64,000 nucleotides of DNA from a virus (Duplodnaviria; Caudoviricetes). Numbering within the stretch: position 1 is the first letter of the stretch; each line of letters begins with the position of its first letter. Below are positions 2,415-55,168 of this stretch, in pieces. The stretch lies in the IMG/VR virus record IMGVR_UViG_3300040811_001959, one strand, 5' to 3'. The position numbers and the translations under genes were made by a program. Below the pieces are notes generated by a model. That model worked only from the letters and a program-made list of their open reading frames with translations. It ran no database searches and was not told the DNA's origin.

Positions 2415-2422
2415 AATATTTC

Positions 2423-2968: not shown

Positions 2969-2974
2969 TTTTAA

Positions 2975-3466: not shown

Positions 3467-3487
3467 TAGTTTCTCCTTATGTGTGTG

Positions 3488-3733: not shown

Positions 3734-3781
3734 ATTCCTCTTTAGGTTAAAAGTTAATAATAACAGTTTAAAATTAAATTG

Positions 3782-5449: not shown

Positions 5450-5469
5450 TTTAAATTCCTTTTAGATAT

Positions 5470-6697: not shown

Positions 6698-6698
6698 G

Positions 6699-7010: not shown

Positions 7011-7026
7011 TGTGTTTCCTTGTTGA

Positions 7027-7044
7027 AGGGAGGTCGCCCTCCCT
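7027..7044 (-). terminator. GC-rich hairpin after hsp20 (terminator or processing site)
   Basis: AGGGAGG-GCGA-CCTCCCT, GNRA tetraloop, no clear U-tract. Confidence 0.45.
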
Positions 7045-7055
7045 ATAGTATTTAA

Positions 7056-7517: not shown

Positions 7518-7580
7518 TTTTTTCTCCTTTAATAAGCAAGATTAGTAGTGGACCCGACCATCGGCATCCACTGTTATTTA
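7518..7580 (-). promoter_or_regulatory. TAAATA late box plus ROSE-like RNA thermometer leader of hsp20
   Basis: UCUUGCUU-AUUA-AAGGAGA hairpin sequesters the SD with a bulged G; preceded by hairpin AGUGGAUGCC...GGGUCCACU. Confidence 0.7.
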
Positions 7581-7592
7581 CCAAAAACTCAA

Positions 7593-36339: not shown

Positions 36340-37471
36340 AATCTATACCATATAAACTACCTACCAAACTTATGAAGTCTTGTTTTCGGTGTTGTTTAAT
36401 TAAATTGTAATAATCAAAAATTTTTTGTTTCATTTCAAGACTATTTTCATCTGCAAGAGCATTTTTTACAATAGGAAACCAACGTGCCTCAATTATATTT
36501 TTAATATCATTTAATATTAAAAATTTTAGGTGTTCTTGCAAAATTCCAGGGTTACTATAGCCTTTACTTGTAGAACTTTCATGTGTTGCTACATTGATAC
36601 AATAAGGATAATTATATTTTTTACAATATATTAAAAAATGTTTTAAACCTATTGCACTAAAACTGCTCAAGGTAAAATTTAGTGTAAATTTAAATTTATT
36701 TCTTTGTAAAGCAGCAAAATCATTTATTTTTTTTATATTTCTATCAACAATACACCATTTTGCTGGAAACCTTACAAATTCAAATACCTCATCTATTCCA
36801 TCAACACTAATAACAAAATTTACAGATTTAAATTTAATCATATTATTTAAATGATAATCTTTTATAAAAGTTCCATTTGAAACTAATTGTAAATTAACAT
36901 TTTTTAGGCAATCTGCATCAAAATTATCAAGATAACTCCAAAACTTTTTTGCTAGCATTGGCTCACCACCATACAATTCTAAAGTTTTATTTGATGTAGG
37001 ATTAGTTTTGATAAATTTTGTTAAAATGGCTTCTATTTCTTCTTTTTTAAAATAATTGGTTTTGCTTTTTTGTAAATTACGCATCAACGAAAATGACTGA
37101 ACATCTTCATTCCATTTTGTTGAATAATCTGGGCTGCACATGATACATTTTAAATTACAGATATTGCTTAATTTTATTTGTAGATGAGTTGGAAATTCAG
37201 TTGCTTCTTTATAAAATTTATTAGTAGTTATCTCATTTAGCCTTTTTGATTGTCCTATTTTTTTGTCTCTATTATAACACAACGTACAATCTTCTATTGG
37301 TATATTATCCAAGTTTTTTTTCCTAATAGCATCTAATGTATCAGCTTTCCAAAAATCTAAAAAATTATGATTAGGATAATTATACTGTTTGCTACTAACA
37401 CAGCATAATTTAAAATTATTTGGATTTAATTCAACTGAATAAAATGGAACAGGACAATAAGTTTTATTCAT
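36314..37471 (-). CDS. Radical SAM enzyme with N-terminal Cys cluster
   Basis: CNLKCIMC, YGGEPML, SNGT, SVDG; N-terminal YCPVPF...KLCC...CTLC. Confidence 0.9.
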   Translation of the reverse strand: MNKTYCPVPFYSVELNPNNFKLCCVSSKQYNYPNHNFLDFWKADTLDAIRKKNLDNIPIEDCTLCYNRDKKIGQSKRLNEITTNKFYKEATEFPTHLQIKLSNICNLKCIMCSPDYSTKWNEDVQSFSLMRNLQKSKTNYFKKEEIEAILTKFIKTNPTSNKTLELYGGEPMLAKKFWSYLDNFDADCLKNVNLQLVSNGTFIKDYHLNNMIKFKSVNFVISVDGIDEVFEFVRFPAKWCIVDRNIKKINDFAALQRNKFKFTLNFTLSSFSAIGLKHFLIYCKKYNYPYCINVATHESSTSKGYSNPGILQEHLKFLILNDIKNIIEARWFPIVKNALADENSLEMKQKIFDYYNLIKQHRKQDFISLVGSLYGIDYVKPCNHY

Positions 37472-39119: not shown

Positions 39120-39761
39120 CTATCTAAATTTTGGACCTCCGTACCAGCAAATAAAAGCTCTGCGTGTACCAGCTGTTATTTTATTCACTTTATGGATTGC
39201 AAATGTTGGAAATAAAAGCACACTACCTTGAAGCTTTACATTGTTCGGTTGTGCAATATTTAAATGTTCTTCTACAATGGTCTCACCTCCATCATAATCT
39301 TCTTCGTTTGATAACTGAATTATAAAAGTTAATTTTCTATCATGATGATGATTATCCCAATGATTTGTATCATCGTGTGTATCAAACCAATCATCAATAT
39401 CATATTGCATCAATTGTTTAGATAAGCAGCCATAACTTATATCTAGATGAAAACAATCTCTGTTAGCCATTAAAGCAATTTTATCTAATTTTGCATCTAA
39501 CCAATCAATCTCATTTTCCAAGAACATGTGTTTCCTAGACCTTTTTTCTCTAAAATATTTATACCACGGACTTTCTTCGTTATTTACTATTTCTATGAAA
39601 ACATCTTCATTTTTCCAATATGACCAAATTTTATCACATTCTTCTTTTGTAAAAATATTTTCTTTAAAATAGTAAGGTTGTCTACTACCGTTTGAATCAG
39701 AAAAAACTCTTTGCTTTGTTTCTTTTGAAGCTTTTGCTATGTCATTAGGTTCATATATCAT
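39120..39761 (-). CDS. 2OG-Fe(II) oxygenase (prolyl-hydroxylase/PKHD type), intact triad
   Basis: THDD...RKLT...YDGGE...FPTFAIHKV...GTR...GGPKFR. Confidence 0.88.
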   Translation of the reverse strand: MIYEPNDIAKASKETKQRVFSDSNGSRQPYYFKENIFTKEECDKIWSYWKNEDVFIEIVNNEESPWYKYFREKRSRKHMFLENEIDWLDAKLDKIALMANRDCFHLDISYGCLSKQLMQYDIDDWFDTHDDTNHWDNHHHDRKLTFIIQLSNEEDYDGGETIVEEHLNIAQPNNVKLQGSVLLFPTFAIHKVNKITAGTRRAFICWYGGPKFR

Positions 39762-40384
39762 CTAAATTTTGGTCCAATAATATGAGAGATTAATATATAC
39801 TTCGTTCCTTTTGTAATAGGAGCAATCTTGTAAAAATAATAAGCAGGTAATATACATAAAGATCCCTGTGAAAGAAATTTTTGCGGAATAGGAACTGTGC
39901 TATGAAATTCAACAATTTCACCTCCTACAATATCTTCGTCATTTAAAAATAATAAAAGACTCAACTTATTATCGTAAGGTTTTTCATTGTTCCACCACTC
40001 GCAATCATGGTGCCAATTTATAAACTGGTCTTTTTCAAATTTACACAGATATAGGTTTTCTACATTCATAAGATCTAGCATAAAATTTTTATTGGCATCT
40101 GCGCCAACTTCGTTGAAAATTTTTTCTAAAAATTTATAATCTTCTGGGAAAAAATTTTTCTTTAGTGAGATAGAAAAGAAATTACCAAAATCGTTATTGA
40201 TATGATTATATCCGCCTTTTTCAAATTTGGTTATTATCTCTTTACAAGCGTTTTCACTAAAAAGTTTTTCATAAATTACAAATGGAGATTTTTTGTAATT
40301 TATAGGAGAATAATCAGTTACCTTGCCAAATATAGGAGGGTAAGGCGATCCTGGTTCTCTTGCATCTTGAATATTTACACCCAT
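39758..40384 (-). CDS. 2OG-Fe(II) oxygenase paralog, distal His replaced
   Basis: WHHD...NKLS...GGE...LPAYYFYKIAPITKGTK...IGPKFR. Confidence 0.75.
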   Translation of the reverse strand: MGVNIQDAREPGSPYPPIFGKVTDYSPINYKKSPFVIYEKLFSENACKEIITKFEKGGYNHINNDFGNFFSISLKKNFFPEDYKFLEKIFNEVGADANKNFMLDLMNVENLYLCKFEKDQFINWHHDCEWWNNEKPYDNKLSLLLFLNDEDIVGGEIVEFHSTVPIPQKFLSQGSLCILPAYYFYKIAPITKGTKYILISHIIGPKFR

Positions 40385-41718
40385 GACGGTCTCCGTATAT
40401 CTCCTTGAATATCAACAACTTTTTTTCCTGTTAATAGTTTTATAGCTCCAAACATAATTCCTAAATTATAGGCATACTCATTCCAGCAAGTTTGAGCAAA
40501 CTCTTTTCCAGTAAGAAACATACAGGACCCTTTGCATAATTGTAAAACAGGACAATGTGTACATTCGTTTCTCCAGGACCAATGCCTGCTAGATTTAATT
40601 CTAACGGCATCAAAATTGTCAAGATGACCAGCAAGGTGTTTGTTTTCCAAACCTACATTTTGGCATGTGAGTACATTACCTTTTAAATCTAGAGCTAGTT
40701 CATCGTCTTGATCCATTCCACATTTTTGCCCAAGAAACTCTGCATCTTTTTTATATAATAAAGAACCATACCATTCGTTAATTTTTTCTACAATACCTAC
40801 AACTTGTAATAATGGTTGCTTACCTTCTACTATCCCGTTGTATATTTTTTCTCTAAAATCATAAACATACTTTTGATCAAATTTTCCAGTTTTATCATTT
40901 AGTGCAGTTTTTAAATCGTAGGCTTCGACAACTCCTTCACAATTAATATTAACATCGGTTCCAAATTTATCTCTAAACCATTTTACAGTTTGATCGTAAT
41001 CATCATTTTCTTTTGTCCAAACAATTGAAAAAGCAAACCCAAGTTCTTGTTTTTTATCAGCTTCTATTAATTGTTTTACAAATTCAAACTTTTTAGGATT
41101 ATCTAATGGATCAGGCCCTCTAAGATGATATCCGGGTCCGTCATGTGACATTGCTAAATTAAATCTATATTTTTTAAAAAAATCAATTTTTTCTTGTGTT
41201 AACAAACTTCCATTTGTAACCATCGTAAATTCAATATCTTCATCACATTTTTCTTTTAAAAAAGGTACTAATTTTTTTATTTTTTTCCAATAAAGTAGCG
41301 GCTCGCCGCCCCAAAGTTCCACCATTGTACAAGATGATAAATCAATACTATTTTCTAAATTATGCATAAAAACATCTGTATCATTTTCATCTGTACGAGA
41401 TGCAGCAGGAACAAAAGATGCTTGACTACAATATTCACATTTATAATTACATTTTAATCCCAACTGAATTTTAATTCTACTTGGGTTTTTTAATTTTTTT
41501 CCAGGATTAAAAAAAGGATGAATAGGATTTACATTAGTTTGATGAGGATAATCTTTAGGACTATATACATACATTTCATTGATTTTTTCAATACCGATTG
41601 GATTTTTTTCATATAAATTTTGACCGTCGGCATTAGTAAGTAAACTTTTATATGGATAATAAAAAAATTCTTCCCCGTCGTCGCAAATTAGTGTATAAAC
41701 AAGATTTTTATTTTTCAT
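40375..41718 (-). CDS. Radical SAM/SPASM-domain enzyme
   Basis: CNYKCEYC, WGGEPL, TNGS, SHDG; KCGM...TCQ...CTHCPVLQLCKGSC SPASM-type cysteines. Confidence 0.92.
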   Translation of the reverse strand: MKNKNLVYTLICDDGEEFFYYPYKSLLTNADGQNLYEKNPIGIEKINEMYVYSPKDYPHQTNVNPIHPFFNPGKKLKNPSRIKIQLGLKCNYKCEYCSQASFVPAASRTDENDTDVFMHNLENSIDLSSCTMVELWGGEPLLYWKKIKKLVPFLKEKCDEDIEFTMVTNGSLLTQEKIDFFKKYRFNLAMSHDGPGYHLRGPDPLDNPKKFEFVKQLIEADKKQELGFAFSIVWTKENDDYDQTVKWFRDKFGTDVNINCEGVVEAYDLKTALNDKTGKFDQKYVYDFREKIYNGIVEGKQPLLQVVGIVEKINEWYGSLLYKKDAEFLGQKCGMDQDDELALDLKGNVLTCQNVGLENKHLAGHLDNFDAVRIKSSRHWSWRNECTHCPVLQLCKGSCMFLTGKEFAQTCWNEYAYNLGIMFGAIKLLTGKKVVDIQGDIRRPSWV

Positions 41719-41850: not shown

Positions 41851-43500
41851 TTATATTTTAGAAGCAAGCTCATATTTTTGTTGATATAATTGAATTGTAA
41901 GACTATTTGATAACAATTGTTCTTTAAACTGCTGGAATAAATCTTTGGCAATTAGATAATTTTCTTCACTACAAAAATCTAATACATCATTGTTTTGTAA
42001 TAATTCTTTTCTTTTTTCAATATCATAAAGTTTATTATGAAAAACAGGAACCAAAAAATCATATTCATTAATAAAATTAAAAAGTTTATTTTCGGTATGG
42101 TAATAGACATGAAAAAAACGCCAGTAATTTATTTTAAAAGACATTGTTTCGTCTATTCCTGTTGTAATTTCAGTAGAATTTGGATTATATATATTTTTAC
42201 AATCTTTCCAAAAATTAGCAGAATTATTAGTCCAAGTATATAATAAAGACAAATCTGAAATTTCTTTAAAAAAATTAGAGTAAGTTTCATTAAATTCTAA
42301 AGTTTTCAACATCAATGTTTCTTCATCTATACTAAAACAATCATCTTCCGTGTCGTTATCGCTTTCAATTAAAATATTAATTAGCGATTCTATCTGTTTT
42401 ACAATTAGATTTAAGGGATCAATAAAAATAGGTTCAATAATCGATGAAGCATTACCTAACGCTATGCAATTTTTGTTAAGAATTTTATCTATTGATCCTA
42501 TGTTTAAATCTATAATTTGATATTTCTCAATTTTCAAATTAAGATGATTTTCTAACTCTGACAGCGCATCTTCGTCACTGATATAATTTTGTGCATAAAC
42601 ATAAGAATACCTTGTGCAGTTTTGTAATGGAATTTGATATACATAACCTGCTGATAAAGGATAAAAATCTTTCCAAATTTTTTCTAATGCAATATCACTT
42701 TCATATGAAATTACTTTATTCACTTTATGCGTAGGAAATAACCAAAAATTATAAAAAGAAAAATTTGTAACAACATCTCTATGAATTCCTGTGCAATCTA
42801 TAACAAAATCACAGTCATAAACATCATTTGTTCCTTTAACTTGGATAATAGTTTCGTCTTCTTCTTGAATTAGTTGTTGGTAATAATCGTCTATTACCTC
42901 AACATCTTGCTGTAAAGCTAATCTTTTAATATATGGCAATAGTTTTTCACTTGTGTAGGTGATTGCAATTGATCTGTCTTTATTGTCAAATAAATTCATT
43001 AAACTAGCAATATCTAAATCTGGAATTTTATCTTCGGTAAAAAATGATGTAATTTCTGAAAAATTAATTTTTTTTTCGTCATTTAATAGTCTATTAAGAT
43101 AGGATCGTTTCCATGTCTTATTAAACTTCTCGACTTCATCATTTGGATCTATTTCATCTTGATCAGCGTTGTCTTCAGTTTTTTCTGGCCAATGAATTTC
43201 ATCAATTTTCATAAAATTCATAGAATTACTATGTACAAAAATTTCGTCTGTAGTATTCCAATTATTATACCTTGACCCAAAGTTAATAACTCCTTGGGTT
43301 TCTTGGAATAAGTCTTTTATGTCTAAATATTCAATTAAGTTTTTTGTAAGGTATAAAGTTCCTTCTTGTATATCATTACCTTCAAGAATAGGCTGATTTA
43401 TAATTTTAATTTCAAGAAATGGTAATTGCGTTTTTAATATATAAGCGGTTAACCAACCTTCAAGACCTGATCCAACAATAATGATCTTTTTTAATCTCAT
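41851..43500 (-). CDS. Tryptophan-halogenase-fold flavoprotein, atypical
   Basis: IVGSGLEGWLTA, FVIDCTG, GYVYQIPLQN, ALGNASSIIEP. Confidence 0.72.
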   Translation of the reverse strand: MRLKKIIIVGSGLEGWLTAYILKTQLPFLEIKIINQPILEGNDIQEGTLYLTKNLIEYLDIKDLFQETQGVINFGSRYNNWNTTDEIFVHSNSMNFMKIDEIHWPEKTEDNADQDEIDPNDEVEKFNKTWKRSYLNRLLNDEKKINFSEITSFFTEDKIPDLDIASLMNLFDNKDRSIAITYTSEKLLPYIKRLALQQDVEVIDDYYQQLIQEEDETIIQVKGTNDVYDCDFVIDCTGIHRDVVTNFSFYNFWLFPTHKVNKVISYESDIALEKIWKDFYPLSAGYVYQIPLQNCTRYSYVYAQNYISDEDALSELENHLNLKIEKYQIIDLNIGSIDKILNKNCIALGNASSIIEPIFIDPLNLIVKQIESLINILIESDNDTEDDCFSIDEETLMLKTLEFNETYSNFFKEISDLSLLYTWTNNSANFWKDCKNIYNPNSTEITTGIDETMSFKINYWRFFHVYYHTENKLFNFINEYDFLVPVFHNKLYDIEKRKELLQNNDVLDFCSEENYLIAKDLFQQFKEQLLSNSLTIQLYQQKYELASKI

Positions 43501-44198
43501 GCTTCCTCAATTTTTTGTATTATATCGTTGATATCCTTCAATGAATGTGATATCGGTACGTTTGATAATTTATTATGTAGATTCAAATTATTTTTCTTTA
43601 TATCAGTATTATCATTTTTTAAAAGTCTAGTCATATTAATTTTATTTCTTACCTTATTATAAAACATTACAAGGAAAATAGGATAGTATGTCATATTTTT
43701 ACAAAAAAAAGCTTCTTGCTGGAAAAATAAAAAATCACCAGGATTAACAACACATTTTGAAATATTTTTATTATCACTGGTATAATATATAGATTCTATA
43801 TTTAAAGGAACTAGACAAAAATTATCAGAATATTTTAAAAGTTTTGTTTTTCTAAACCTTTCCGGAGTAACTATATTTTTAATACCATTGTCAATATAAT
43901 CTAGACTTGTTGATAAATCAAGAAATTGGATATCTTCTAAATATATGTCAGTATTAATTTGCAAAATATTATTGTAAATGGTTCTAATGATATCAATTAT
44001 AGGATCAATACAAAAAATAATTGAATAACTATTTGTTTCTGTAATTTTTCTGACAATACCATTAGCAAGTAGTCGCACGTCATCTAATTCCTGTTGAATT
44101 CTATGTTTATTAAAATCATGAACTGACCTTATTATATCAAAAAAATATTTAAGACGTGTTACATCTTTTTTAGATAACAATTGTTTTTCATATAGCAT
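43497..44198 (-). CDS. Hypothetical protein, possible degenerate jelly-roll
   Basis: 233-aa ORF in cluster; LVPL...PGDFLFF. Confidence 0.45.
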   Translation of the reverse strand: MLYEKQLLSKKDVTRLKYFFDIIRSVHDFNKHRIQQELDDVRLLANGIVRKITETNSYSIIFCIDPIIDIIRTIYNNILQINTDIYLEDIQFLDLSTSLDYIDNGIKNIVTPERFRKTKLLKYSDNFCLVPLNIESIYYTSDNKNISKCVVNPGDFLFFQQEAFFCKNMTYYPIFLVMFYNKVRNKINMTRLLKNDNTDIKKNNLNLHNKLSNVPISHSLKDINDIIQKIEEA

Positions 44199-45855
44199 TA
44201 TTACTTGCCCTTAATCGTTTGAATGGAACATGTTCTATATAAGTTTCAAAGTATTCTCCATTTTTTGATGTAATTTGTCCTACATTACCATAGTTCGGAG
44301 TCTCTAAAATTAATAAATTTAAAAATTCATCAAAAGTAAAATAGCCATTAAAGTAAAAATTTTCTTTTACATTAATTTCAAGATATAATGCTAACCTATC
44401 AAACACGTTGCTGCTTGAAAAATCAAAATCAAATGCAGTAATGTTACCAAGTTGAGCTGCTAAAATTATATAATCAATTACACTATTTGGGTCTTTGTCG
44501 TAGGAATTGCCAAAAGTAATTTCATTATTAAAATCTGTACTAAAACTAGGTACTTTATCATTAAAATTAGTTTTTAATGTATCTGGTGTATTATTAAAAA
44601 TTCCATAACCTTGCAAATTGTTATCCTGCAATAAATAAAAACTAAATTTCTTAAGATTTTTGTTAAAATTTTCCCATTTATGTTGAAGTGAATCAATGTA
44701 TTGATATAAATTTGCTGGATCGATTATGGAAGAATTAATCGTTGATACAATTGTATCTATATAAATATTAGCTGCCACTAACTCTTCGTTAAATATAGGA
44801 TTCAAACCTAATTTTTCTAAATTAAATTCTATATAATTAGAATGATTTAGATCATTAATTAAAAAATTATTTTGAAGTGTATTAATATTATTGACATTAT
44901 TGCTAAATGATATTTTTTTTGCATAATCTTGATATTTTAAAATTTTAACAAATTTATTATCTAAAAGCTGGTTATTATAGATTGCTGGTTCAAGAAAATC
45001 AATTTGTTCATCTTCATAACCAGAAAAAATTATTGTAGGATTTGTAGTAGTAAGTTCTTTATCACTTTCTATAAAATTATTAAAAAATAGATTATTTATA
45101 CCTGTATTAATCACCAAATCTACATTAAAAGATTGACTACTAGTCGTAATTTGTGTTATATTTTTTTTATTTTTTCCATCTAATACTGGTAGGATTTCAG
45201 TTGATCCATCTACTATATTATCAGTTATAATGTCTAACCCTAATTCTGATATTTTGTTATCTAGAAGAAGAGCAAGATTATCTAAATCATAACATCCTGG
45301 CATTCTAAACCATAAAGGACCTGCAGATCCTTCGGTTAGAAATTTGCCGGTGAGATGATATAAATTATCATTATTTTTATATAAATCATATGGAAAGATT
45401 GTAAGCACATCAAGGATATTTTTATTTTTTTGTAGTAGATATTCTATAAAAGCTTGATATTTTCTTTCTGTTGAATCAAATTTTAAAAAATCATATTTTG
45501 TACAATAATAGTTTAATAAACTAAATTGTAACTGTGTCATCCTAGCTGGTAATATTATCTCATTTTCTATTATACCTTCAAAAGAAATTCCATGCCCGAC
45601 TGTGCTCTTTGTTTGTGTAAAAATCTCTGCAACGCTTATATTACAATGTTTAAAAAACAACGAAGGAAAGGAATATTGTTCAGCTACAGGTAGATATTGA
45701 TTTGAAATTATTTGTGTTCTGAAACTTTCATTATTAGTAAATAATATTGGATTACTTTGCGGATTATTTATCTTCAAGGATAATGCAATCACCTTTGCAG
45801 CAAATGTATTTCCTAATACTGCAATATTTTTTATTGCCATTTTGATCCTATACAA
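44188..45855 (-). CDS. Highly degenerate halogenase-fold protein
   Basis: IAVLGNTFAAKVIA, STVGHGISF, DLVINTG; same length class as its neighbour. Confidence 0.5.
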   Translation of the reverse strand: MYRIKMAIKNIAVLGNTFAAKVIALSLKINNPQSNPILFTNNESFRTQIISNQYLPVAEQYSFPSLFFKHCNISVAEIFTQTKSTVGHGISFEGIIENEIILPARMTQLQFSLLNYYCTKYDFLKFDSTERKYQAFIEYLLQKNKNILDVLTIFPYDLYKNNDNLYHLTGKFLTEGSAGPLWFRMPGCYDLDNLALLLDNKISELGLDIITDNIVDGSTEILPVLDGKNKKNITQITTSSQSFNVDLVINTGINNLFFNNFIESDKELTTTNPTIIFSGYEDEQIDFLEPAIYNNQLLDNKFVKILKYQDYAKKISFSNNVNNINTLQNNFLINDLNHSNYIEFNLEKLGLNPIFNEELVAANIYIDTIVSTINSSIIDPANLYQYIDSLQHKWENFNKNLKKFSFYLLQDNNLQGYGIFNNTPDTLKTNFNDKVPSFSTDFNNEITFGNSYDKDPNSVIDYIILAAQLGNITAFDFDFSSSNVFDRLALYLEINVKENFYFNGYFTFDEFLNLLILETPNYGNVGQITSKNGEYFETYIEHVPFKRLRASNNAI

Positions 45856-46379
45856 AATGCAAACAAGTATTTTAATTGTGGTACAGAAACAGTATCAATT
45901 ATATATTTTTGAAAGCTGTTAAATACTACAATGGCACCAGTTTTTTGATAAAAAATCTTATCAATCTCACTTTGACTTCCATTAGGTGCGATTAGTTTAA
46001 TTTTTCCACCAGCAATATCTGGATCAAAAGGAGGATTTAAATTTATGATAGCTACAAGTTTTCTATCATAATAATTCTGCACCCAATGGTTTAATTCCAT
46101 TCGTTCTGAAAATGATCCGTCTTTTGAATATGATTCTAATCTAATTGCATCGATGCTATTAATTGAATAACCAAAATTATTATTATTTGCTTTTTGGAAA
46201 TAATAATAAATTGCATCTTCTATATCAGAAATGTAACCACCACCGTACCATTTGACATCTACATTTTTACCTTTACCACTAGATAGATTACTTTTAACTT
46301 GTAAATTTTCAATAATATTTAGAAATTCTGGTACTACATTTTCAACAGCACCAGGAAAGGTTATATGATCGTAAAGCAT
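45831..46379 (-). CDS. 2OG-oxygenase paralog lacking Fe ligands
   Basis: RKLVAIINL...GG...IVVFNSFQKYIID...IGSKWQ. Confidence 0.6.
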   Translation of the reverse strand: MLYDHITFPGAVENVVPEFLNIIENLQVKSNLSSGKGKNVDVKWYGGGYISDIEDAIYYYFQKANNNNFGYSINSIDAIRLESYSKDGSFSERMELNHWVQNYYDRKLVAIINLNPPFDPDIAGGKIKLIAPNGSQSEIDKIFYQKTGAIVVFNSFQKYIIDTVSVPQLKYLFAFCIGSKWQ

Positions 46380-46384
46380 AATAT

Positions 46385-46972
46385 TTATTTCAATTTAGGA
46401 CCTACAATATCGAATGTAAGAACTTGCATAGCTCCTTGTAATAATGGATTTATTTTTATAGGTACAAAAGATGGATAAATTAACAAATTACCTTGCTCAT
46501 TATAATATTTAGGTAGTGATATGCCATATAAAGGGTCTACTAAGAATTGCCCACCTTCATATTTTTGTTTATCACTTAGAAAAACATAACCAGTTAGTTT
46601 TTGGTCACAGGACTCATTTGAAAAAAAATCTAATCTTGAATGGTATCCGTACTCACAACCTTGCTGGAAGGTTATTAATCTTGGATCGTTTTCAAATCCC
46701 CAAATTTCATATCCATAATTTCTAGTATTGCAATCAAAAATATATTTTAATATTTTTTCTTCTAAATGCAGTTGATTTTCAATTGTGTAAGACTCAAAGT
46801 TTTGTTTAGGTGTTCTCGGATTTGTAACTGGATTGGGTTCTATGTTGACAATATCATTGTCGATTTGCAATTCGCAAATTTCAGCGCATTCGTCGCTATA
46901 GAATATTTTAGGATATATAGTAAAACATTCTTTTTTAAGAAGAGAAGAATAGTCATATTCCATTATATTCAT
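46385..46972 (-). CDS. 2OG-oxygenase paralog with degenerate triad
   Basis: YGYHSRLD...QKLT...YEGG...IYPSFVPIKINP...VGPKLK. Confidence 0.65.
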   Translation of the reverse strand: MNIMEYDYSSLLKKECFTIYPKIFYSDECAEICELQIDNDIVNIEPNPVTNPRTPKQNFESYTIENQLHLEEKILKYIFDCNTRNYGYEIWGFENDPRLITFQQGCEYGYHSRLDFFSNESCDQKLTGYVFLSDKQKYEGGQFLVDPLYGISLPKYYNEQGNLLIYPSFVPIKINPLLQGAMQVLTFDIVGPKLK

Positions 46973-46987: not shown

Positions 46988-47695
46988 TTATAGGTTTTCT
47001 ATTTTTTCTAATAAAATCGGAATTTGTTCAATGTAAATTAAACCCTTTAATTTATTTCCGTCTTTTTCTAGAATATTTATTAGGTCTGGTAAAATATTTT
47101 CTGCCTCTTGAGCAAATTGATCTAGCAAAACTTTTTCATCGTCAGTAATATCATTGTCATTTTCTATCAAACTTTCAATATCAAGCCCTTTATCTATATA
47201 ATCTATTATAATCTCTTGTAAAGATTTTAATTTTTCTACGCTAAGTTGATCTATAATAAATCCATCGGAGTCTTTTCCTAAATTAAATGAACATTTACAT
47301 TTACCACACCAACATTTACAAGCACATTTGCATTTACATTGGCACTTGCATGCACATTTGCATTTACATTGGCACTTGCATGCACAAAGGCACTTGCACT
47401 TACACTTGCACTTGCATTTGCATTTGCACTGGCACTTGCATTTGCAATTGCAGTTGGTTGTATATTCTATCCTTAGTGTACCTTCTGATCCTGCTACATT
47501 ATTCCGTATTTGATAAATTTTGTTAATAGCAGCGCCGGTAAATGGACCATTGCTAGGAGTTGGAACTAGAGACACTCCATTTAATAACCAACTTGGACTC
47601 ACAAAAGAAGCAGGAATAGTTGTAGGATCTACATTACTAATATCAATTTTATCTGCCGGATCACCTACAACGGTATTTCCAATTTTTAATGCCAT
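46988..47695 (-). CDS. Protein with central alternating Cys-Xaa tract; candidate radical SAM substrate
   Basis: Residues 82-135 contain 27 Cys; acidic C-terminal domain; GAGG SD and TAAATA box upstream. Confidence 0.8.
   Translation of the reverse strand: MALKIGNTVVGDPADKIDISNVDPTTIPASFVSPSWLLNGVSLVPTPSNGPFTGAAINKIYQIRNNVAGSEGTLRIEYTTNCNCKCKCQCKCKCKCKCKCKCLCACKCQCKCKCACKCQCKCKCACKCWCGKCKCSFNLGKDSDGFIIDQLSVEKLKSLQEIIIDYIDKGLDIESLIENDNDITDDEKVLLDQFAQEAENILPDLINILEKDGNKLKGLIYIEQIPILLEKIENL
47291..47452 (-). repeat. Cys-Xaa codon repeat including a 30-bp tandem duplication (47322-47386)
   Basis: TGY-NNN periodicity; CACKCQCKCK unit duplicated exactly. Confidence 0.95.
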
Positions 47696-47729: not shown

Positions 47730-48326
47730 TTATGAGACCGTGATATAACTATTCACTGGATAGCTACATTGACAAGAATCCTCGACAGTAGTATCGTCGT
47801 AATAAGCTCCACTTCCACGATTATATGAACATACCATAGCACAATAGTAATTTGCAGTACCTATACAACAGCAAACTAAACAATTATTAACTATTGCAAA
47901 ACAAATTTGATTTGTGTATCCGCCTAATGTCCATCTGACGCCGGCTGTAACATCAAAGCATGTAAGGGTTCCTTGTGTAGCAGGTATATTACTACTGGGT
48001 TGCACATATGATCCGTAAGACGTAGTATTTGCACACATAAAAAAATCGCTGCCTTTACCAACATAAACATTAGTCACTGTATCAGCCCATGAGTCAAAAT
48101 CTCCACAAAAAATATCTAACAAAGTATATGTTCCTTGTGGATTTGAAAAAAAAGTTAAATCAGTTTCGGGATCTAATCCTAACACCCGTTGGCATGCCGC
48201 AATGCTTGGATTACAAACTATCAATTGTCCTGTTGTATGTTGCTTTCCTGGTGCTTGTGCGTTCCTTTCCGCTTGGGTGAGTCCTGCTTCTAAAATTATT
48301 ATCTTATCTCTAATTCTAAATGCCAA
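47730..48326 (-). CDS. Cys-rich virion-type protein
   Basis: MAFRIRDKII N-terminus; 14 Cys including VCCC. Confidence 0.55.
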   Translation of the reverse strand: MAFRIRDKIIILEAGLTQAERNAQAPGKQHTTGQLIVCNPSIAACQRVLGLDPETDLTFFSNPQGTYTLLDIFCGDFDSWADTVTNVYVGKGSDFFMCANTTSYGSYVQPSSNIPATQGTLTCFDVTAGVRWTLGGYTNQICFAIVNNCLVCCCIGTANYYCAMVCSYNRGSGAYYDDTTVEDSCQCSYPVNSYITVS

Positions 48327-48327
48327 T

Positions 48328-48771
48328 TTAATCTCCTATATAAACATACTTCACACTAGAATCTCCGTTGTAGTCACAAAATTTAATTAAATTTGCACAG
48401 CCTACCATATATGAATCATATACACACCTACTATAGTAATAAGGATTTTGGACAGTATTATAATATGGTGGTCCTGTGTGTTTAGGAGTCCGGGTATCAC
48501 AATACCTATGGCTATTTGCAACAGAAGAATGCGACCCTAATAAGAACGCTCTCCTGGATAGTCCGCATTTATCAATCGCAGTTCCTGTTGTGCTCCTAGT
48601 CCCTGAGGCTAAATAGGCAATAACTTTTGGACAGCGTAACCATACTTGATTATCGGTAAATGATGTGTTAGAATTCATTCCTTGCCCATACGGAACAATG
48701 GTATCTTTAAAATCTATTGATGTTGTTAAACCTACTGCATCTACAAGGACGCCGTTAATATAAAAAGCCAT
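48328..48771 (-). CDS. Small virion-type protein
   Basis: MAFYINGVLV N-terminus; 6 Cys. Confidence 0.55.
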   Translation of the reverse strand: MAFYINGVLVDAVGLTTSIDFKDTIVPYGQGMNSNTSFTDNQVWLRCPKVIAYLASGTRSTTGTAIDKCGLSRRAFLLGSHSSVANSHRYCDTRTPKHTGPPYYNTVQNPYYYSRCVYDSYMVGCANLIKFCDYNGDSSVKYVYIGD

Positions 48772-49964
48772 TATGGTATTACCTTAAGTTTCAAACTACC
48801 AACATTTGAAAATGATTTAAAGCCAATTTTGATTTCTACATCGTCACCTACTTCTAAATCAAGCGCTCTATATAAAAATCTACCCCTACCGTTTTTTACA
48901 TTACATTTACGTTTACTCAAATAGCCTGCATTGGCCGAAACGTAAAAGTCAATATCTTTTTGAATTATATAGTGATCTGAAATTGTACCTTCTTTATCGC
49001 TTAAATTAGTAGGTGTTAAAATTTTAAGATCAGTCGTATTTAGATCCTCCAAGCAAAGTTTACTATCTATATGTTCATATGTAATTTTATCAGCATCTTC
49101 CGTAAGCAGAACTTCTTCATTATCATATAGACTTACATTGACTAAAATGACATCATCTTTAGATATTTCAAGAGGAGCGTGTAATTGAATTTTAGGTAAA
49201 GGAAGCTCTGCATAACTAGTAAGTAAAGGAAAAACATAAGCAAAGTTTGCCCCGCCGATTTCATTTGTACCTAATTTAAAATCAAAATGAAATTCTCCGT
49301 GACATCTAACGTAATAACTACATTCTGTAAAATCATCGTCTTTATCTAGTATGAAAATAGAAAAAAGTCTTTTCCTAAATTCGCCGCTAGTCCAGAAAGA
49401 TGCGCCCTCTGGTGTTGTCCTTATTAATTTTGGAGCTGTTACATAAGAACTATTAAGTTCATGCCTAACAAAAGGCGACTTTGTTATTACAGAATCAAAT
49501 AGGATATTTTTAGGATAAAACCAATTCATACCGTCAAAATTAAAATCAAACGCCCATAAGGCGCAATCGGACCATTCAACAAAAGTATTTTTATCAAATC
49601 CAACATTTTTATCAAACCCTCTATCATAGGTTGTTGTTCTTGTCAGTATTGAAATGTTACCATCTTGATCAAAAGCTCTGCGAATTTGTGCTCCGCCAAA
49701 ATACCTAAAATATTTTGACTGCACTGATGGTTCATAGAAAATTGAACCAGAAACCACCGACTCTAAGAAATTTGCATCCATATCAATATTATGATCTTGT
49801 AAGAACGAAACTCCATCTTTATTATCTATGAATAGTATGTTTTCTGGCAATTCATCATAGATTTCTTCATGAAAGGCTTTAATTGTAATTGTATTGGTAT
49901 CTACTTCTATTTTAAGAAATAAATTATCTAATAAATCATTTGTGGCCCTAAAATATTGTCGCAT
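48771..49964 (-). CDS. Hypothetical protein with C-terminal Ig-like domain
   Basis: AGYLSKRKCNVKNGRGRFLYRALDLEVGDDVEIKIGF. Confidence 0.55.
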   Translation of the reverse strand: MRQYFRATNDLLDNLFLKIEVDTNTITIKAFHEEIYDELPENILFIDNKDGVSFLQDHNIDMDANFLESVVSGSIFYEPSVQSKYFRYFGGAQIRRAFDQDGNISILTRTTTYDRGFDKNVGFDKNTFVEWSDCALWAFDFNFDGMNWFYPKNILFDSVITKSPFVRHELNSSYVTAPKLIRTTPEGASFWTSGEFRKRLFSIFILDKDDDFTECSYYVRCHGEFHFDFKLGTNEIGGANFAYVFPLLTSYAELPLPKIQLHAPLEISKDDVILVNVSLYDNEEVLLTEDADKITYEHIDSKLCLEDLNTTDLKILTPTNLSDKEGTISDHYIIQKDIDFYVSANAGYLSKRKCNVKNGRGRFLYRALDLEVGDDVEIKIGFKSFSNVGSLKLKVIP

Positions 49965-52900
49965 TATTTTTCCAATCTTTTTTCTAATTCACTAACTTTT
50001 TTAGATAATTCTTTAACAGCCTCTAATAATACAACTGTAAATTTTTGATAATCAACCTTTAAAAATCCTGTATCGCCTCTTTCAACAACTAATTCTGGAT
50101 AATATTCCTGTATCTGTTGCGCCTTAACACCAATCTCTTCTTTATCATTTTTATATAAAAACTTTTCTTTTGCCAGACCGTTCCATTTAAATTTAATGGT
50201 ATCAATGTTTGAAATTGTATCTAAAACGTTTTCAAGACCACCAGTAATGGTTTTAAGTCTTACATCTGATGTATATTCTGTGGTTATATCTCCAGTTGCA
50301 AGTATATTACCTGTTTCGCATTCTAAAAATATATTATCAACTGCTGTAGTGCTTCTTCCTACAATAGTTTTTGCAGTATCAGTACCAAAGTAGAAGCCAT
50401 ATCCATCTTCTGACTCTCTGGTTAACTGTTGCGCTTGTAATTTTGTAGTTGATACATAGGTGTCAAGATTAATGGTAACATCACCAGTTACACTACTATT
50501 AGTATTGATATTATCTCCACCAATAAATTGTATAGTTTGTCCACCTGCAACTGCTCTTACAGTAGAATCGTCTCCTGTAATTTTCCAAACACCACTACCA
50601 TCACCTACAGCAGTGTTTGAAAATTCTACTGTTTTATTGATAGCATTGAAAACTATACCTATACCAGCTCCGGCAATCCATGTAAGAGTATCATAACCTT
50701 CTGCGATTAAATCGTCTTGTGCTTCGGCTTGCCATGTACGAAAAGTGCTATGGGTAAGTGAAATTTTAACTTCTTTGTTTCCTAGATCAACAAAATCAAA
50801 ACCGCTATCTTCATCAAATTGCAATCTAACAAAATCATTTGCTGACTTTATAGGAGTATTAGTATTGTCAATTACATCAACATGGGTTCCTGAAAAAATA
50901 GTGAGCGATCCATCGCTTGCACTTTCGGTATAGACATTGTCATTACCAATAATTTTTAAGGTATCACCTGATCCAATTTCTCTTGAGATATTATCGGTAC
51001 CGGTGTAATTAAAACTGAATGTAACACCGGCTATTGCATTATCAATATATAATTGCGTAATTGAATCTGAAGATAATAATAGAGATTCAGCTGATAGAGA
51101 TTTACCAATAATGCCGTATTCTGTTTGCGTAAGAGTCAAGCTTCCATCTGCATCTAAATAATAATCTTCATTGGTAACTAATCCTGCTTGTTGATCTGCA
51201 ATTTTACCGTTAGTATACACCGGACCTATTTGCCCTGCTCCTGTGCTAGTTTTTACTATACCTATAAATTTACCAGCATTCGATTCAATTGTTGTATAGG
51301 CGGTGTCATATAAAGTACTTTGGCCTGGCCCTGAAGTGTTGCCTCTGTAGGAAATTATAATTTTATTTTTTACAGTGTCGGTAGTAATATCATTGTACCA
51401 ACTAGGATTAAAATAAATATCTTCTGGATCTAAGAAAAGGAATGTTCCTGCTGGATTAATTACGCCTGTTTGTATTTTTCCTCTACCATTGGTAGTGTCT
51501 CGGAACGCAATACAAACTCTTTTAGAATTAGATTCATATGCTGCTGATAAGTAAAGTACGTTATACTCAGCAAATGTGTACGGTAATTTCAAATCAAAAC
51601 CTGTACCAACTATGGTACCAGTTCTATATGTTCCATAATTGCTGTTATCTATGTCACGATATACGACTACAAGCCTATCATTTTCAGGAGTAGTAATGAT
51701 ATCATTATAATCACCATTATTGGCAACCACTGTTGCATCACCGATATTAACTGTAATTGTAGTAACTGTGTTAAATGATGCTGAAACCAACATTACATTA
51801 CCATTAGATCTATGATAAGCTATAATGCTTTGATTCGTGTTAGGATCATATGCCGCTCTAATATTATTGATAATGTTAGTGTCAAATATTTGTTCTGTGC
51901 CTAAACTTAGAGCACCATTTATTATTGTGCCTACAACAATTTTTCCTTGACTATTATCATTAGTATCTTCGTAGTGCAACAAAACTGATTCATCGGTTGT
52001 GTTATAAACCGCATATACCGAACCTGCTATAGCCGAATTTGGAAGATTTATAGGAGAGCGTAGATTAATTTCTGTTCCTGCAATTTCTGCTAATCTAACC
52101 TCATTGTTATACACGATTACTACAAAATCTAATTCAACATGATAGGCAACAGCGACATCAAAGACTGAGCTTGAAACCTGTTTAGGAGTTCCATAATCAA
52201 TTGTATTGTCAGCTTTTATTTGTCCTACCACAACTTTAGTATCAGACTCTGTTATATCCTTGTATACAACTATAACTTTATCTTTTCCATTAAACACAGA
52301 ATCAACATCATTAATATCATTTGCAGTAAACGTATGATCAGTATGGGTTATACTCAAGTTTTCAGTGTAAACTGCAGATACTTTTTCTATTTTACCATCG
52401 GCTCTCAGTGCAACGGTCGTACCACCACGGATGAACTCATGAAATTCAAATTGAGCATCGGCATCTTCTATACCATAACCGGATAATGTAGTTGGAGTAT
52501 TGTAAATTTTTTCCCAGGATGTTTCTGGAAATATTTGCAAATGATCTGAGTTGAGCCCTTTTCCTATTAAACCAAAGTCAGTTTTTGTTGTTGTGAAACT
52601 AGCATCTGAATTTAAATAATAGATTTGATCAAAGGTAAGTGATGTCTGATGCCTATCTACTGCTCCTCTTAGGTTAATTTTTCCAGACTGACCTGCAGGT
52701 ATGTCATCATCTGCAACGCCTATAAAACGGTTAGCATTACCATATAAATTAGACTCTGCAGAAAATAAAGTAATTTCTCCTTTATTATTGTCAACTTTGT
52801 CTCCATAAGCAATGACTGTTTTATTAGTTGTGGTATCAAAAACTGATGCCACAGCAGTGAGAGGATAACCTTGCCCGTCTGCGAAGATAAAATCAGGTTC

Positions 52901-55168
52901 AAATTCTATTGTGTTGGTAGCAGGTCTAACAATGCCTACTTTTGTGATGCCAATTTTTACAGGATCAGTTGTATTTCTTTCATATGAAATGATTACTTTT
53001 TGATTTTGATTATCAAATGATGCTGAAATTTTTGAAGTAAATCCAGTATCAAACACCACAGGAGTACCAAAATTAATATAACTACCTACAAGATATCCTG
53101 TTACCGCAGTACCTCTGCCGCTGTTACCTCCATCTGAATAACATATTACACAATGATCTGTAAAGCTATCCCATACCACTGATATATCGCTGATAGGATT
53201 ACTACTCGAAAAAATGTAATGAGGCCCTACCTGGAAACTTGTTCCTAATGCGTTCGTCCAAATTAAATTTGCATACCCTTGTCCTGTAGCTCCGTCTTGA
53301 TAAGCAAGGAGTGTGAAATCATTTGATACTGTGCCGTCACCGGGTACATTTGTAATAGAATCTATCCAGTTCATAGTTTCTGCAGGATTTACACTAAATC
53401 CTGCAAGATAAACTAAATTAATAGTTGTACCAGTAGTAGTTAATAATCTTACCTGACCTCTATTAGACTCACCCTTAAATGCTAATACTGTTACATTTGC
53501 TAGAGCATCATAACTAATTGAGTGATATAATCCTTGGAAACCATTTGAAGTTTCAACAGCAGTTCCAATAGATAGGGTATTGTTAGATGTAATTATATCT
53601 GCTGCAACAGCAAAGCCTTTGTTAGAATCGTTTACATCAGTATAGGCGAATATCAATTGATTATTAGGAATAAAATTAATAGCAGTATATGCTATTTCAT
53701 CATTAAGGATTTTATAAGATGGTCCGAAATTAATATTGTTACCTGTAATTTCTCCAATACGCACAAAACCATATCCGTCTTGGTTTTTCCATATCACAGC
53801 AATTTTATTATTATCGGAGCTGTAAGCAACATCTATAATCGATGCTTCTTCGCCAATGTCTGTAAAAACTATAGGTAATGTATTAGTAGCTGCATTTAAC
53901 GTGTCGCCACCGACAAATTCAGTTACTGGTTCTACGTTCCCATTTGAATTAACAACTACTACATCACCTTTGTTGACCGTAACTTCAGAAGTGAAGAACT
54001 TTTGGTTATCGCCTAGAGTTTCTTGAAAACTATATAAACCATTACCATCTGCTGTCAAGACTAATCCAGGTAAGACGCTAGAATCTGTATCAACATCTTC
54101 TAAAGCAGATAGTAACCCTGCTTGAAATGACTTAAAATAAAATGTTCCATTGCCTGCAGAGGTTAAGACATCGTTTGCATTAGATGTTGCTGTAACATCT
54201 TGTAGGGTTGCCAGAGTAAGAGCCGAGCTTGCACCCCAATAAAAAGAGTTGCTCGATGCAGCATATAAAACTTGTCCAGCACTTGGATTATTTGTAATCT
54301 GTAATAAATCAGTCACATTACCACTAAATGCATCAGTGATGCCATAACCAACTAATGTAGTTGGTATGTTTAATAAACTGCTAAACTCTTTATCAAATGT
54401 TGCATTGGTTATTGCATTATCAACATAAGTTTTAGTTGTAAAGTTTGCATTATTGGTAAGTTGTGTAATATTGTCTGCTGGTTGTAATGCGCTATCTGCA
54501 AGACTTCCTTGGGTAGAAGTAGCAGCATCTGTGATACCATATCCTGCAAGTGTTGTTGGTTTATTTAAAAGATTATTAAATTGTCCATTGAATGCAGTTG
54601 ATGCTAACTGATAAGGCGTTAGATCAGGTCCTTGTATCCGTATGTTACCATCTGCATCACTATAGGTTGCAATATTTCTTTCGCCTGAAATCTTAATACT
54701 GTCGGTAAGCGGTATAGAAATTATATTGCTATCATCTGCAGCAATTTTTAAATAGATGTCTTCTAATTTAACACTTACAGTAATGTCATTTGCTGAGTCT
54801 CTAATGAAAGAGATACCATATCCTTCATTTAGCTCAACATCAGTTGGCAATGATTGATCAACAATAGCAGCATAACTGGCAACTACATCAACACTATCGG
54901 GTAATGAACTCTTAACAGATAATCTGGTATTATATCCTAAAATTAATTTTTCGCCAGTTGACACAACTCGCAAACTTGTCCGACTAGGTAACACGACATC
55001 TTTTATATAATATCCGTTGTCAATAACCACGTCAACATTTACCATTAAGTTTGTGACATTAGTTAAACTTAATCCAAGTAATGTATATCTTGCAAATGCT
55101 GTTGATTCTAAGATTTGCGTATCATCTAAACCAATATTTTTTACAATTTTATTACCTATTACTGCCAT
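49964..55168 (-). CDS. Long tail fibre with two tandem propeller-like modules and C-terminal intramolecular chaperone (S74-type)
   Basis: SDVRLKT...IKFKWN...GVKAQQIQEYYPELV...KVDYQKFTVVLLEAVKEL; repeated KPTTLAGYGITDA shaft motif. Confidence 0.88.
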   Translation of the reverse strand: MAVIGNKIVKNIGLDDTQILESTAFARYTLLGLSLTNVTNLMVNVDVVIDNGYYIKDVVLPSRTSLRVVSTGEKLILGYNTRLSVKSSLPDSVDVVASYAAIVDQSLPTDVELNEGYGISFIRDSANDITVSVKLEDIYLKIAADDSNIISIPLTDSIKISGERNIATYSDADGNIRIQGPDLTPYQLASTAFNGQFNNLLNKPTTLAGYGITDAATSTQGSLADSALQPADNITQLTNNANFTTKTYVDNAITNATFDKEFSSLLNIPTTLVGYGITDAFSGNVTDLLQITNNPSAGQVLYAASSNSFYWGASSALTLATLQDVTATSNANDVLTSAGNGTFYFKSFQAGLLSALEDVDTDSSVLPGLVLTADGNGLYSFQETLGDNQKFFTSEVTVNKGDVVVVNSNGNVEPVTEFVGGDTLNAATNTLPIVFTDIGEEASIIDVAYSSDNNKIAVIWKNQDGYGFVRIGEITGNNINFGPSYKILNDEIAYTAINFIPNNQLIFAYTDVNDSNKGFAVAADIITSNNTLSIGTAVETSNGFQGLYHSISYDALANVTVLAFKGESNRGQVRLLTTTGTTINLVYLAGFSVNPAETMNWIDSITNVPGDGTVSNDFTLLAYQDGATGQGYANLIWTNALGTSFQVGPHYIFSSSNPISDISVVWDSFTDHCVICYSDGGNSGRGTAVTGYLVGSYINFGTPVVFDTGFTSKISASFDNQNQKVIISYERNTTDPVKIGITKVGIVRPATNTIEFEPDFIFADGQGYPLTAVASVFDTTTNKTVIAYGDKVDNNKGEITLFSAESNLYGNANRFIGVADDDIPAGQSGKINLRGAVDRHQTSLTFDQIYYLNSDASFTTTKTDFGLIGKGLNSDHLQIFPETSWEKIYNTPTTLSGYGIEDADAQFEFHEFIRGGTTVALRADGKIEKVSAVYTENLSITHTDHTFTANDINDVDSVFNGKDKVIVVYKDITESDTKVVVGQIKADNTIDYGTPKQVSSSVFDVAVAYHVELDFVVIVYNNEVRLAEIAGTEINLRSPINLPNSAIAGSVYAVYNTTDESVLLHYEDTNDNSQGKIVVGTIINGALSLGTEQIFDTNIINNIRAAYDPNTNQSIIAYHRSNGNVMLVSASFNTVTTITVNIGDATVVANNGDYNDIITTPENDRLVVVYRDIDNSNYGTYRTGTIVGTGFDLKLPYTFAEYNVLYLSAAYESNSKRVCIAFRDTTNGRGKIQTGVINPAGTFLFLDPEDIYFNPSWYNDITTDTVKNKIIISYRGNTSGPGQSTLYDTAYTTIESNAGKFIGIVKTSTGAGQIGPVYTNGKIADQQAGLVTNEDYYLDADGSLTLTQTEYGIIGKSLSAESLLLSSDSITQLYIDNAIAGVTFSFNYTGTDNISREIGSGDTLKIIGNDNVYTESASDGSLTIFSGTHVDVIDNTNTPIKSANDFVRLQFDEDSGFDFVDLGNKEVKISLTHSTFRTWQAEAQDDLIAEGYDTLTWIAGAGIGIVFNAINKTVEFSNTAVGDGSGVWKITGDDSTVRAVAGGQTIQFIGGDNINTNSSVTGDVTINLDTYVSTTKLQAQQLTRESEDGYGFYFGTDTAKTIVGRSTTAVDNIFLECETGNILATGDITTEYTSDVRLKTITGGLENVLDTISNIDTIKFKWNGLAKEKFLYKNDKEEIGVKAQQIQEYYPELVVERGDTGFLKVDYQKFTVVLLEAVKELSKKVSELEKRLEK

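Follow-up and report, generated by a model that had tools for sequence, protein, structure and literature searches.

The 64,000-nucleotide stretch analyzed here (the window) is part of a 117.6-kb viral contig in IMG/VR (IMGVR_UViG_3300040811_001959; Caudoviricetes) that is estimated to be about half complete. One of its virion proteins is ~45% identical to the counterparts in T4-like cyanophages, and the phage DNA recurs in estuary, seawater, and salt-marsh metagenomes. At positions 46988-47695 on the minus strand, the window contains an open reading frame (ORF) for a 235-aa protein (P0001) with a long tract in which every second residue is Cys and most of the others are Lys. This protein, referred to below as the CK protein, has full-length homologs on about ten other contigs. 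The sequence AGAGG lies 7 nt 5′ of the ATG of the CK gene.

The CK protein consists of three parts. The N-terminal domain (residues 1-81; 47453-47695), which starts with MALKIGN and is a putative attachment domain, is kept in all family members. It is followed by a (Cys-X)n tract (residues 82-135; 47291-47452) containing 27 Cys and 17 Lys, with a conserved TNCNCKCKC start and a Trp near its end, and by a C-terminal acidic domain (residues 136-235; 46991-47290), which hhalign related to a diverged Peptidase_S74 domain without the SDxxLK cleavage motif. All Cys residues of the protein are confined to residues 82-135. A preliminary description of this DNA had reported 54 alternating residues with 27 Cys; the span and the count were correct, but strict C-X alternation covers 50 residues (82-131, 25 Cys) and is followed by a one-residue phase slip (C-G-K-C) and then CKC, so that the end reads CWCGKCKC. 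The X positions of the strict run are occupied by 15 Lys, 3 Gln, 3 Ala, and one each of Asn, Leu, Trp, and Gly, and its codons are mixed for both Cys (16 TGC and 9 TGT) and Lys (8 AAA and 7 AAG). No His occurs within the tract. A chance origin was excluded because Cys accounts for only 0.6% of the residues in the 18 long ORFs of the window. At the DNA level, Tandem Repeats Finder detected a 30-bp period, present in 4-4.5 copies that share 78-80% identity, together with 6-, 12-, and 18-bp periods.

Scans against Pfam, PHROGs, and NCBIfam yielded no family match for the CK protein, and solved structures searched by sequence with the full profile and the canonical C-terminal domain gave nothing meaningful. 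Relatives of the N-terminal domain were sought beyond the CK family, and none were found. The AlphaFold2 (AF2) monomer had a mean predicted local distance difference test (pLDDT) score of 48, with low confidence in the N-terminal domain, and the only hits obtained with it in Foldseek were helical-bundle noise, which says nothing on the fold. Neither megablast with the 7-kb region nor tblastn with the CK protein found a match among 50,697 phage records, which included no cultured phage with this gene, and none of the RNA runs screened for the stretch contained it.

Conservation of the tract and affiliation of the acidic domain

The contigs carrying full-length relatives derive from uncultured marine phages, and their CK proteins show 38-77% identity; a profile search found one cluster representative of the family among 1.84 billion. 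The relatives retain the reading frame, the period-2 Cys pattern, the invariant (T/Q)-N-C-N-C-K-C-K-C start, and the end Trp, and every Cys position is retained across CK proteins that are only 38-56% identical. Between the window and one relative (L002), 17 of the 47 aligned tract codons differ, all 17 synonymously, and the N-terminal domains of this pair differ by 12 synonymous and 4 non-synonymous changes. In a variant contig from an unrelated marine metagenome of another study, the nine tract substitutions are likewise all synonymous third-position changes, without an indel. These comparisons show that the tract is a feature selected at the protein level. The preliminary description had already proposed a pattern held at that level, and its claim stands on the mixed codons, on the synonymous-only strain changes, and on the homologs, which keep both frame and Cys periodicity while ranging from 12 to 29 Cys in tract length.

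Tract length differs even between close strains, with 25 and 12 Cys in L003 and L041, respectively, despite 97-99% DNA identity in the flanking regions. The preliminary description had noted a 30-bp duplication as a sign of recent expansion. When contig depth was inspected for tract-length variants, only one contig spanned the tract, its length was unchanged, and short high-depth repeat contigs blurred the region. Over the repeat (47360-47447), summed contig depth rises from ~5 to 400-9300 in three seawater and estuary metagenomes; the rise is due to many short contigs of 85-95% likeness and points to similar TGC-AAR repeats in other abundant sequences. Antisense (His-Leu)n ORFs were considered and rejected as shadows of the tract, the strain differences all being at third positions of the sense frame. 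A 180-aa antisense (His-Leu)n ORF overlaps the CK gene of one relative (L003:6183-6725, minus strand) and is not conserved in the window.

The affiliation of the acidic domain became apparent through its relatives. Four CK proteins (P0003, P0004, and those of L003 and L004) match PF13884 (Peptidase_S74, "chaperone of endosialidase") with E values of 1e-11 to 1e-13 and scores of 44-51 bits against a cut-off of 22, and position 1 of the profile aligns with the Ser in ...C-K-C-W-S-D-x-x-L-K that immediately follows the tract. The window CK protein is homologous to these PF13884-bearing relatives over its full length (E 1.5e-60), and hhalign aligned the C-terminus of the window subclade to 11 canonical S74 domains over residues ~151-235 (probability 97.1%, E 6.5e-11). 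The CK family profile retrieved 7961 proteins at E <= 1e-3, nearly all via profile positions 135-245, which correspond to the S74 domain. These alignments identify the acidic domain as a diverged intramolecular chaperone of the Peptidase_S74 type, and the CK protein is therefore predicted to be a trimeric protein of the fibre type. The domain had earlier been viewed as charge-complementary to the tract; the net charges (+17 over the tract and -15 over the last 100 aa) bear this out, but as an S74-type chaperone it would be more than a charge partner.

In known fibres, the S74 domain trimerizes, seeds the folding of the shaft immediately upstream, and is removed by a cut in front of a conserved Ser. 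In T5 pb1, it forms a trimer that folds the end of the fibre before being released; the catalytic Ser at the cleavage site is activated by the Lys at +5, and cleavage requires a correct trimer (PMC4690869). The corresponding S-D-x-R/K-L-K motif, with the catalytic Ser and Lys(+5), is invariant in canonical S74 domains and present in distant relatives of the CK protein. Given this homology, with cleavage before the Ser, the canonical relatives are predicted to mature to a ...C-K-C-W end. The window sequence reads S-F-N-L-G-K and thus retains Ser and Lys(+5), in a segment outside the hhalign alignment; this match is probably fortuitous, since the segments of the nearest relatives differ (D-L-G-D-N-N, F-N-L-G-T-D, and S-R-C-S-I-N-L-G). 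Because the cleavage motif has decayed in the window subclade, the acidic domain probably stays attached there. A single Trp ends the tract in most family members (Trp129 in the window, 47300-47305), and in the canonical relatives it is the residue predicted to become C-terminal after S74 cleavage.

The radical SAM/SPASM enzyme and the conserved gene array

A 447-aa maturase-like enzyme of the radical S-adenosylmethionine (SAM)/SPASM type (P0158; PF04055, E 1.8e-13) is encoded at 40375-41718 on the minus strand. It contains a CX3CX2C motif and a CX2CX5CX3C motif with the full seven-Cys SPASM set, and its best NCBIfam matches were the PapB, CcpM, SCIFF, and anSME maturases. The AF2 model was of moderate quality (pLDDT 63), with anSME and CteB as the nearest folds. 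A conserved N-terminal extension of ~85 aa was modeled with moderate confidence as three beta-strands and a short helix, and Pfam and NCBIfam scans of P0158 gave no match to a PqqD/RRE family (RRE, recognition element of ribosomally synthesized and post-translationally modified peptides, RiPPs). P0158 is the best-conserved member of the gene array to which the CK gene also belongs, with 62-79% identity compared with 38-56% for the CK protein. The two genes are co-directional within one array on all contigs long enough, and the gene order is constant in every related contig long enough to show the array; the array with the enzyme at 62-79% identity is present in G001-G004, L049, and L050. This synteny shows that the CK gene resides in a conserved late-type array together with a long S74 fibre gene and a gene for a radical SAM/SPASM enzyme of the peptide/protein-maturase kind.

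The array, which lies entirely on the minus strand, runs from the long S74 fibre through a 397-aa partner and small Cys-containing proteins with MA-F/L-x-I starts to the CK protein, and then through two degenerate 2-oxoglutarate (2OG) oxygenase-like proteins, halogenase-like proteins, and the radical SAM/SPASM enzyme to two 2OG oxygenases. The 1734-aa fibre (49964-55168) has a canonical C-terminal S74 domain (PF13884, E 1.2e-9, residues 1634-1694) and, like the 397-aa partner (48771-49964), is syntenic in all related contigs. The C-terminal ~60 aa of the partner are 39% identical (E 7e-10) to ORF047 of Ralstonia phage RSP15, whose gene is flanked by those of a side tail fibre and a radical SAM enzyme. 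The two small proteins (198 aa with 14 Cys and 147 aa with 6 Cys; 47730-48771) have MAF-x-I starts and orthologs in L002/L046, and analogous Cys-rich MAF proteins occur in L003/L004. An M-A-(L/F/V)-x-I start is found in four consecutive proteins of the window including the 1734-aa fibre (47686-47695, 48317-48326, 48762-48771, and 55159-55168) and also in the analogous proteins of L003, L004, and L022; the putative virion-type leader of the preliminary description corresponds to this start, which the neighboring proteins have in common.

Directly 3′ of the CK gene are the two degenerate 2OG-oxygenase-like proteins (195 and 182 aa; 45831-46972), syntenic everywhere, which tblastn identified as paralogs of the PF13640 enzyme at 39120-39761 (E 1e-12 and 6e-8, respectively); most of their iron ligands (HxD and the distal His) are gone. 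They are followed by a 555-aa halogenase-like paralog, a 233-aa protein, and a 549-aa protein of the flavin-dependent Trp-halogenase family (41851-45855); the 549-aa protein matches PF04820 (E 6.9e-42), and this part of the array is likewise syntenic. A link between the tract-end Trp and the ever-present tryptophan-halogenase-family gene (41851-43500) would be pure speculation. Beyond P0158 lie the two 2OG-Fe(II) oxygenases, one of 213 aa that is intact and one of 208 aa that is partly degenerate (39120-40384; PF13640 in one, E 1.2e-11; syntenic in L049/L050), and a second radical SAM protein of the twitch-domain type (36314-37471; NF033640, E 4.9e-60, exceeding the cut-off). Searches of known phages gave no match for the 182-aa and 397-aa neighbors, and scans of the array genes against Pfam, NCBIfam, and PHROGs revealed no metal-handling gene. 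The T4-type late promoter TATAAATA was not enriched in the window (7 found versus 12.6 expected).

Cysteine tails and radical SAM enzymes in other loci

Linkage was assessed in two ways, with IMG/VR loci collected via P0158 homology only and, separately, with S74-profile proteins. Starting from the enzyme, five of the six IMG/VR groups, including the CK family, hold a Cys-repeat fibre-like protein within 10 kb of it. In L014-L018, a 314-aa protein with N-C-x-C repeats is encoded directly 3′ of the enzyme, ahead of three 2OG-like genes; in L019 and L020-L021, proteins of ~247-249 aa end in Y-C-x repeats; and in L022-L029, four radical SAM genes precede the gene of a 202-aa "MAL..." protein ending in four C-T-C-N-C-N-Y units. 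The only group without such a protein was L030, which has a marginal enzyme hit. Named phages were also represented: in Achromobacter phage JWF, the enzyme (gp030, 37% identical to P0158) is encoded two genes past the fibre protein gp028, whose N-C-N-C-D-C-N-C-N-C-S tract runs into the first Cys of a self-cleaving Hint domain, and in Ralstonia phage RSP15, the enzyme gene is preceded by those of a side tail fibre with the terminal sequence N-C-Q-C-G-N and of a protein whose C-terminal domain also occurs in the 397-aa partner. The locus of Ralstonia phage RP12 showed no Cys tail near its radical SAM genes. It contains three such genes; in the adjoining 126-aa ORF074 (L051:2400-2777), two H-T-H motifs are present and the C-terminal half is rich in Tyr.

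Starting from the S74 proteins, at least 4 Cys in the 30 residues before the cleavage Ser were present in only 7 of the ~121 listed. The two proteins among these that have C-x-C-type repeats and are outside the CK family (P0018 and P0153) each have a PapB-like radical SAM gene directly upstream, and two S74 proteins with Cys/Gly/Ser tracts adjoin YcaO-nitroreductase-ScmC genes or PqqD. Controls without a periodic tract (P0025 and P0029) had no such enzyme nearby, and the contig of P0015 was too short. The gene neighborhoods are consistent with the view that fibre-type proteins with a periodic Cys tail, either located at the C-terminus or becoming exposed there, are accompanied by an enzyme of the peptide-maturase type. 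The preliminary description had listed a modification substrate among its options, and this option now has real comparative support from the conservation of a radical SAM/SPASM enzyme in the array and from the Cys-repeat fibre tails encoded next to radical SAM enzymes in independent lineages.

Several of these loci had further features of their own. In L038:756-4160 (also in L039 and L040), the Cys/Ser/Gly-rich tract of the 172-aa protein P0105 extends right up to a canonical S74 domain, and the protein is encoded next to YcaO, a nitroreductase-type dehydrogenase, and ScmC, with flanking transposases; this locus resembles a cassette for an azole-forming RiPP, with a self-cleaving S74 domain on the precursor. 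P0069 resembles P0105 and has PqqD nearby. The contig of P0018, which combines C-x-C-N-W-S repeats with S74, contains at least six radical SAM genes (L033:5956-18271) as well as methyltransferase, deacetylase, NodZ-like, and DegT-like genes. In the 202-aa protein of L022 (5775-6383), the four C-T-C-N-C-N-Y units are followed by a single Ser and the stop codon; with Ser at the place where P0018 and P0153 have the S74 catalytic Ser, the protein looks like a naturally "pre-cleaved" version.

A possible cross-linked fibre stalk, its alternatives, and known systems

The reading that we favor, to which we give about even credence, is that the CK ORF encodes a small trimeric phage protein of the fibre type with an enzymatically cross-linked Cys-Lys stalk. 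The ~81-aa N-terminal domain would probably dock the protein to the virion, the 54-residue (Cys-Lys)n tract would form the stalk, and the C-terminal domain of the S74 kind would act as an intramolecular chaperone. From S74 biology, we infer that this domain sets the three Cys-Lys strands in register from the C-terminal side, and the tract would therefore be the distal stalk or tip of the trimer. The linkage and the enzyme family suggest that P0158 modifies the Cys residues, most plausibly with ranthipeptide-like cross-links of the thioether type, and the neighboring 2OG-type proteins may assist it; such modification would give a stalk or tip that is covalently stiffened and coated with lysine. 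A cut before the Ser of ...CKCW|SDxxLK in the canonical relatives would turn the Cys tract into the extreme C-terminus, matching the fibre-end Cys tails of other phages that carry related enzymes. A broader and more tentative proposal is that chaperone-aligned (Cys-Lys)n strands, stitched by the radical SAM/SPASM enzyme with possible help from 2OG proteins, form a polycationic thioether needle that serves as the receptor-contacting fibre end, and that such needles are used by many unrelated phages.

Several points weigh against the cross-linked stalk. The chemistry proposed for the tract is read entirely from gene linkage, and to our knowledge, Lys is not known as a thioether acceptor. All 65 NCBIfam hits of P0158 were below the cut-off (the best, PapB, at 67.8 bits versus 340), and its gene lies 5.3 kb from the CK gene with five genes between. 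The enzyme could in fact act on other Cys-rich proteins of the array. With only 22-26% identity between P0158 and the radical SAM enzymes encoded next to P0018 and P0153, these pairings may be parallel rather than homologous; the sample is also small, and the controls are few, two of them informative. Regarding the CK protein itself, the window copy has no PF13884 match, even at E 10 on residues 130-235, and its SDxxLK cleavage motif has decayed. Structure prediction, which had been suggested as a check in the preliminary description, was run on the monomer and was uninformative on the tract, giving no confident model (pLDDT ~30).

Two alternatives concern other chemistries of the thiols. The tract could be a metal-thiolate needle in which the inward Cys of the three strands hold a row of Zn, Cu, Fe, or Cd, as a thiolate analogue of the His-x-His iron sites at the T4 gp37 tip or as a fibre-shaped metallothionein, and such binding could occur without enzymatic cross-linking or on top of it. 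Period-2 ligand spacing and C-K-C motifs are typical of metallothioneins, the strict conservation of every Cys suits ligand roles, and the trimer registration expected from an S74 domain would align the strands. However, the CK protein matched no metallothionein or other metal-binding family in Pfam, NCBIfam, or the PDB, the array lacks a metal-handling gene, the repeated occurrence of Cys tails next to radical SAM genes is left unexplained, and a two-fold difference in tract length between near-identical strains would be odd for a defined cluster stoichiometry; we consider this reading unlikely. Slightly more doubtful is a disulfide-zippered fibre, in which thiols kept reduced in the host would form inter-chain disulfides after lysis into oxic seawater and lock the trimer. 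The estuary, seawater, and salt-marsh origin of the phage DNA and the position of the tract directly beside the trimerization domain would suit it, and Cys residues near the fibre C-terminus (the cysteine annulus of the P22 tailspike) reportedly aid trimer assembly; nevertheless, three Cys per layer cannot all pair in-layer, and the conserved radical SAM/SPASM, 2OG, and halogenase array would have no explanation.

A third alternative does involve modification but not a fibre: the S74 domain would be a self-cleaving follower, and the modified Cys-Lys peptide would be released as a free RiPP-like effector with, for example, antimicrobial or host-directed activity. Small S74 proteins with Cys/Ser/Gly tracts are found beside YcaO/nitroreductase/ScmC or PqqD genes in non-phage contexts, and S74 can therefore accompany RiPP-type machinery. 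For the CK gene, this reading is improbable, as the gene lies between the long tail fibre and late-type genes and shares their N-terminal start, the conserved 81-aa N-terminal domain is oversized for a typical leader, and the cleavage motif is lost in the window copy. The least credible explanation, already disfavored, is that the tract is a slippage-prone coding microsatellite serving as a mere spacer. The DNA is indeed repetitive (periods of 6, 12, 18, and 30 bp), its length is polymorphic, and matches to the repeat occur in many short contigs of high depth that come from other sources, but the retention of all Cys positions at 38-56% protein identity, the synonymous-only changes, the mixed codons, and the conserved start and end motifs speak against it.

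Tail fibres set phage host range, and their known stabilizers are folds, chaperones, and occasional metal sites. If the cross-linked stalk were confirmed, the radical SAM peptide chemistry known so far from natural products that are small and secreted would have a part in shaping the virion as well, and a purpose would be found for the many radical SAM, 2OG-oxygenase, and halogenase genes that are unexplained in marine T4-like phages. A Cys repeat just before a self-cleaving domain would then be a fibre-tip marker recognizable at sight. The (Cys-Lys)n tract is an extreme natural sequence, and a polycationic rod dense in thiols or thioethers could have practical interest as a material.

Among known systems, the S74 fibres (K1F endosialidase, the L-shaped fibre of T5 with pb1, and the GA-1/phi29 appendages; PMC4690869) resemble the CK protein in having a ~100-130-aa C-terminal chaperone domain directly past the shaft; the canonical CK relatives have Ser...Lys(+5) at the border of shaft and domain, and the neighboring 1734-aa protein has the same domain. 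The CK shaft differs in being a two-residue Cys-Lys repeat instead of a triple beta-helix or prism, the CK proteins are only 220-264 aa long, and the window copy lacks both SDxxLK and a Pfam match. The thioether RiPPs made by radical SAM/SPASM enzymes (PapA/PapB freyrasin, SCIFF CteA/CteB, NxxcA/NxxcB, and the CXXX-repeat family TIGR04115) likewise combine a periodic-Cys tract with a SPASM enzyme, and P0158 resembles these maturases. NxxC thioether chemistry is known for the NxxcA/NxxcB systems, and the conserved N-C-N-C start of the CK tract contains overlapping NxxC spacings. In contrast to these RiPPs, the CK protein is a domain-bearing protein of the predicted fibre type and not a leader-core peptide, its Cys period is two with Lys as partner, and P0158 scores below all family cut-offs and is not adjacent, the cross-link being a prediction here.

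The nearest parallels are JWF gp028/gp030, RSP15 ORF048/ORF045, and L014-L029, where enzymes 26-40% identical to P0158 are encoded beside Cys-repeat fibre-like proteins. Their repeats, of the N-C-x-C type or C-x-Y, occupy the C-terminus, become exposed there, or immediately precede a self-cleaving domain. These tails contain 2-12 Cys with Asn, Asp, Ala, Thr, or Tyr partners and a Hint domain or no C-terminal domain, whereas the CK tract contains 27 Cys with Lys and is joined to S74; no experimental characterization of the tails was found. The T4 gp37 fibre tip, with its period-2 His-x-His metal ligands in a trimer, and the C-K-C-rich metallothioneins are also reminiscent of the tract, which however has Cys instead of His, 27 of them, and no detectable homology to either.

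An array of tandem dioxygenase and halogenase genes has been described in cyanophage Syn9 (gp45-54), and secondary-metabolite synthesis was proposed for it (Iyer et al. 2010, PMC2938197). Both arrays combine several 2OG oxygenase paralogs with tryptophan-halogenase-type genes in a T4-like marine phage; the Syn9 paper describes no Cys-tract protein, S74 link, or SPASM enzyme, and the window array differs in directly following tail-fibre genes. Our searches of the open-access literature and bioRxiv found no paper on a (Cys-Lys)n protein, Cys tracts preceding S74, or fibre maturation by radical SAM enzymes. Relative to these systems, the extreme period-2 Cys-Lys tract and its embedding in a dioxygenase/halogenase array of a T4-like marine phage are new, as are the fusion of the tract with S74, which ties Cys tails to a device for trimer registration and self-cleavage, and the decay of the cleavage motif in one subclade.

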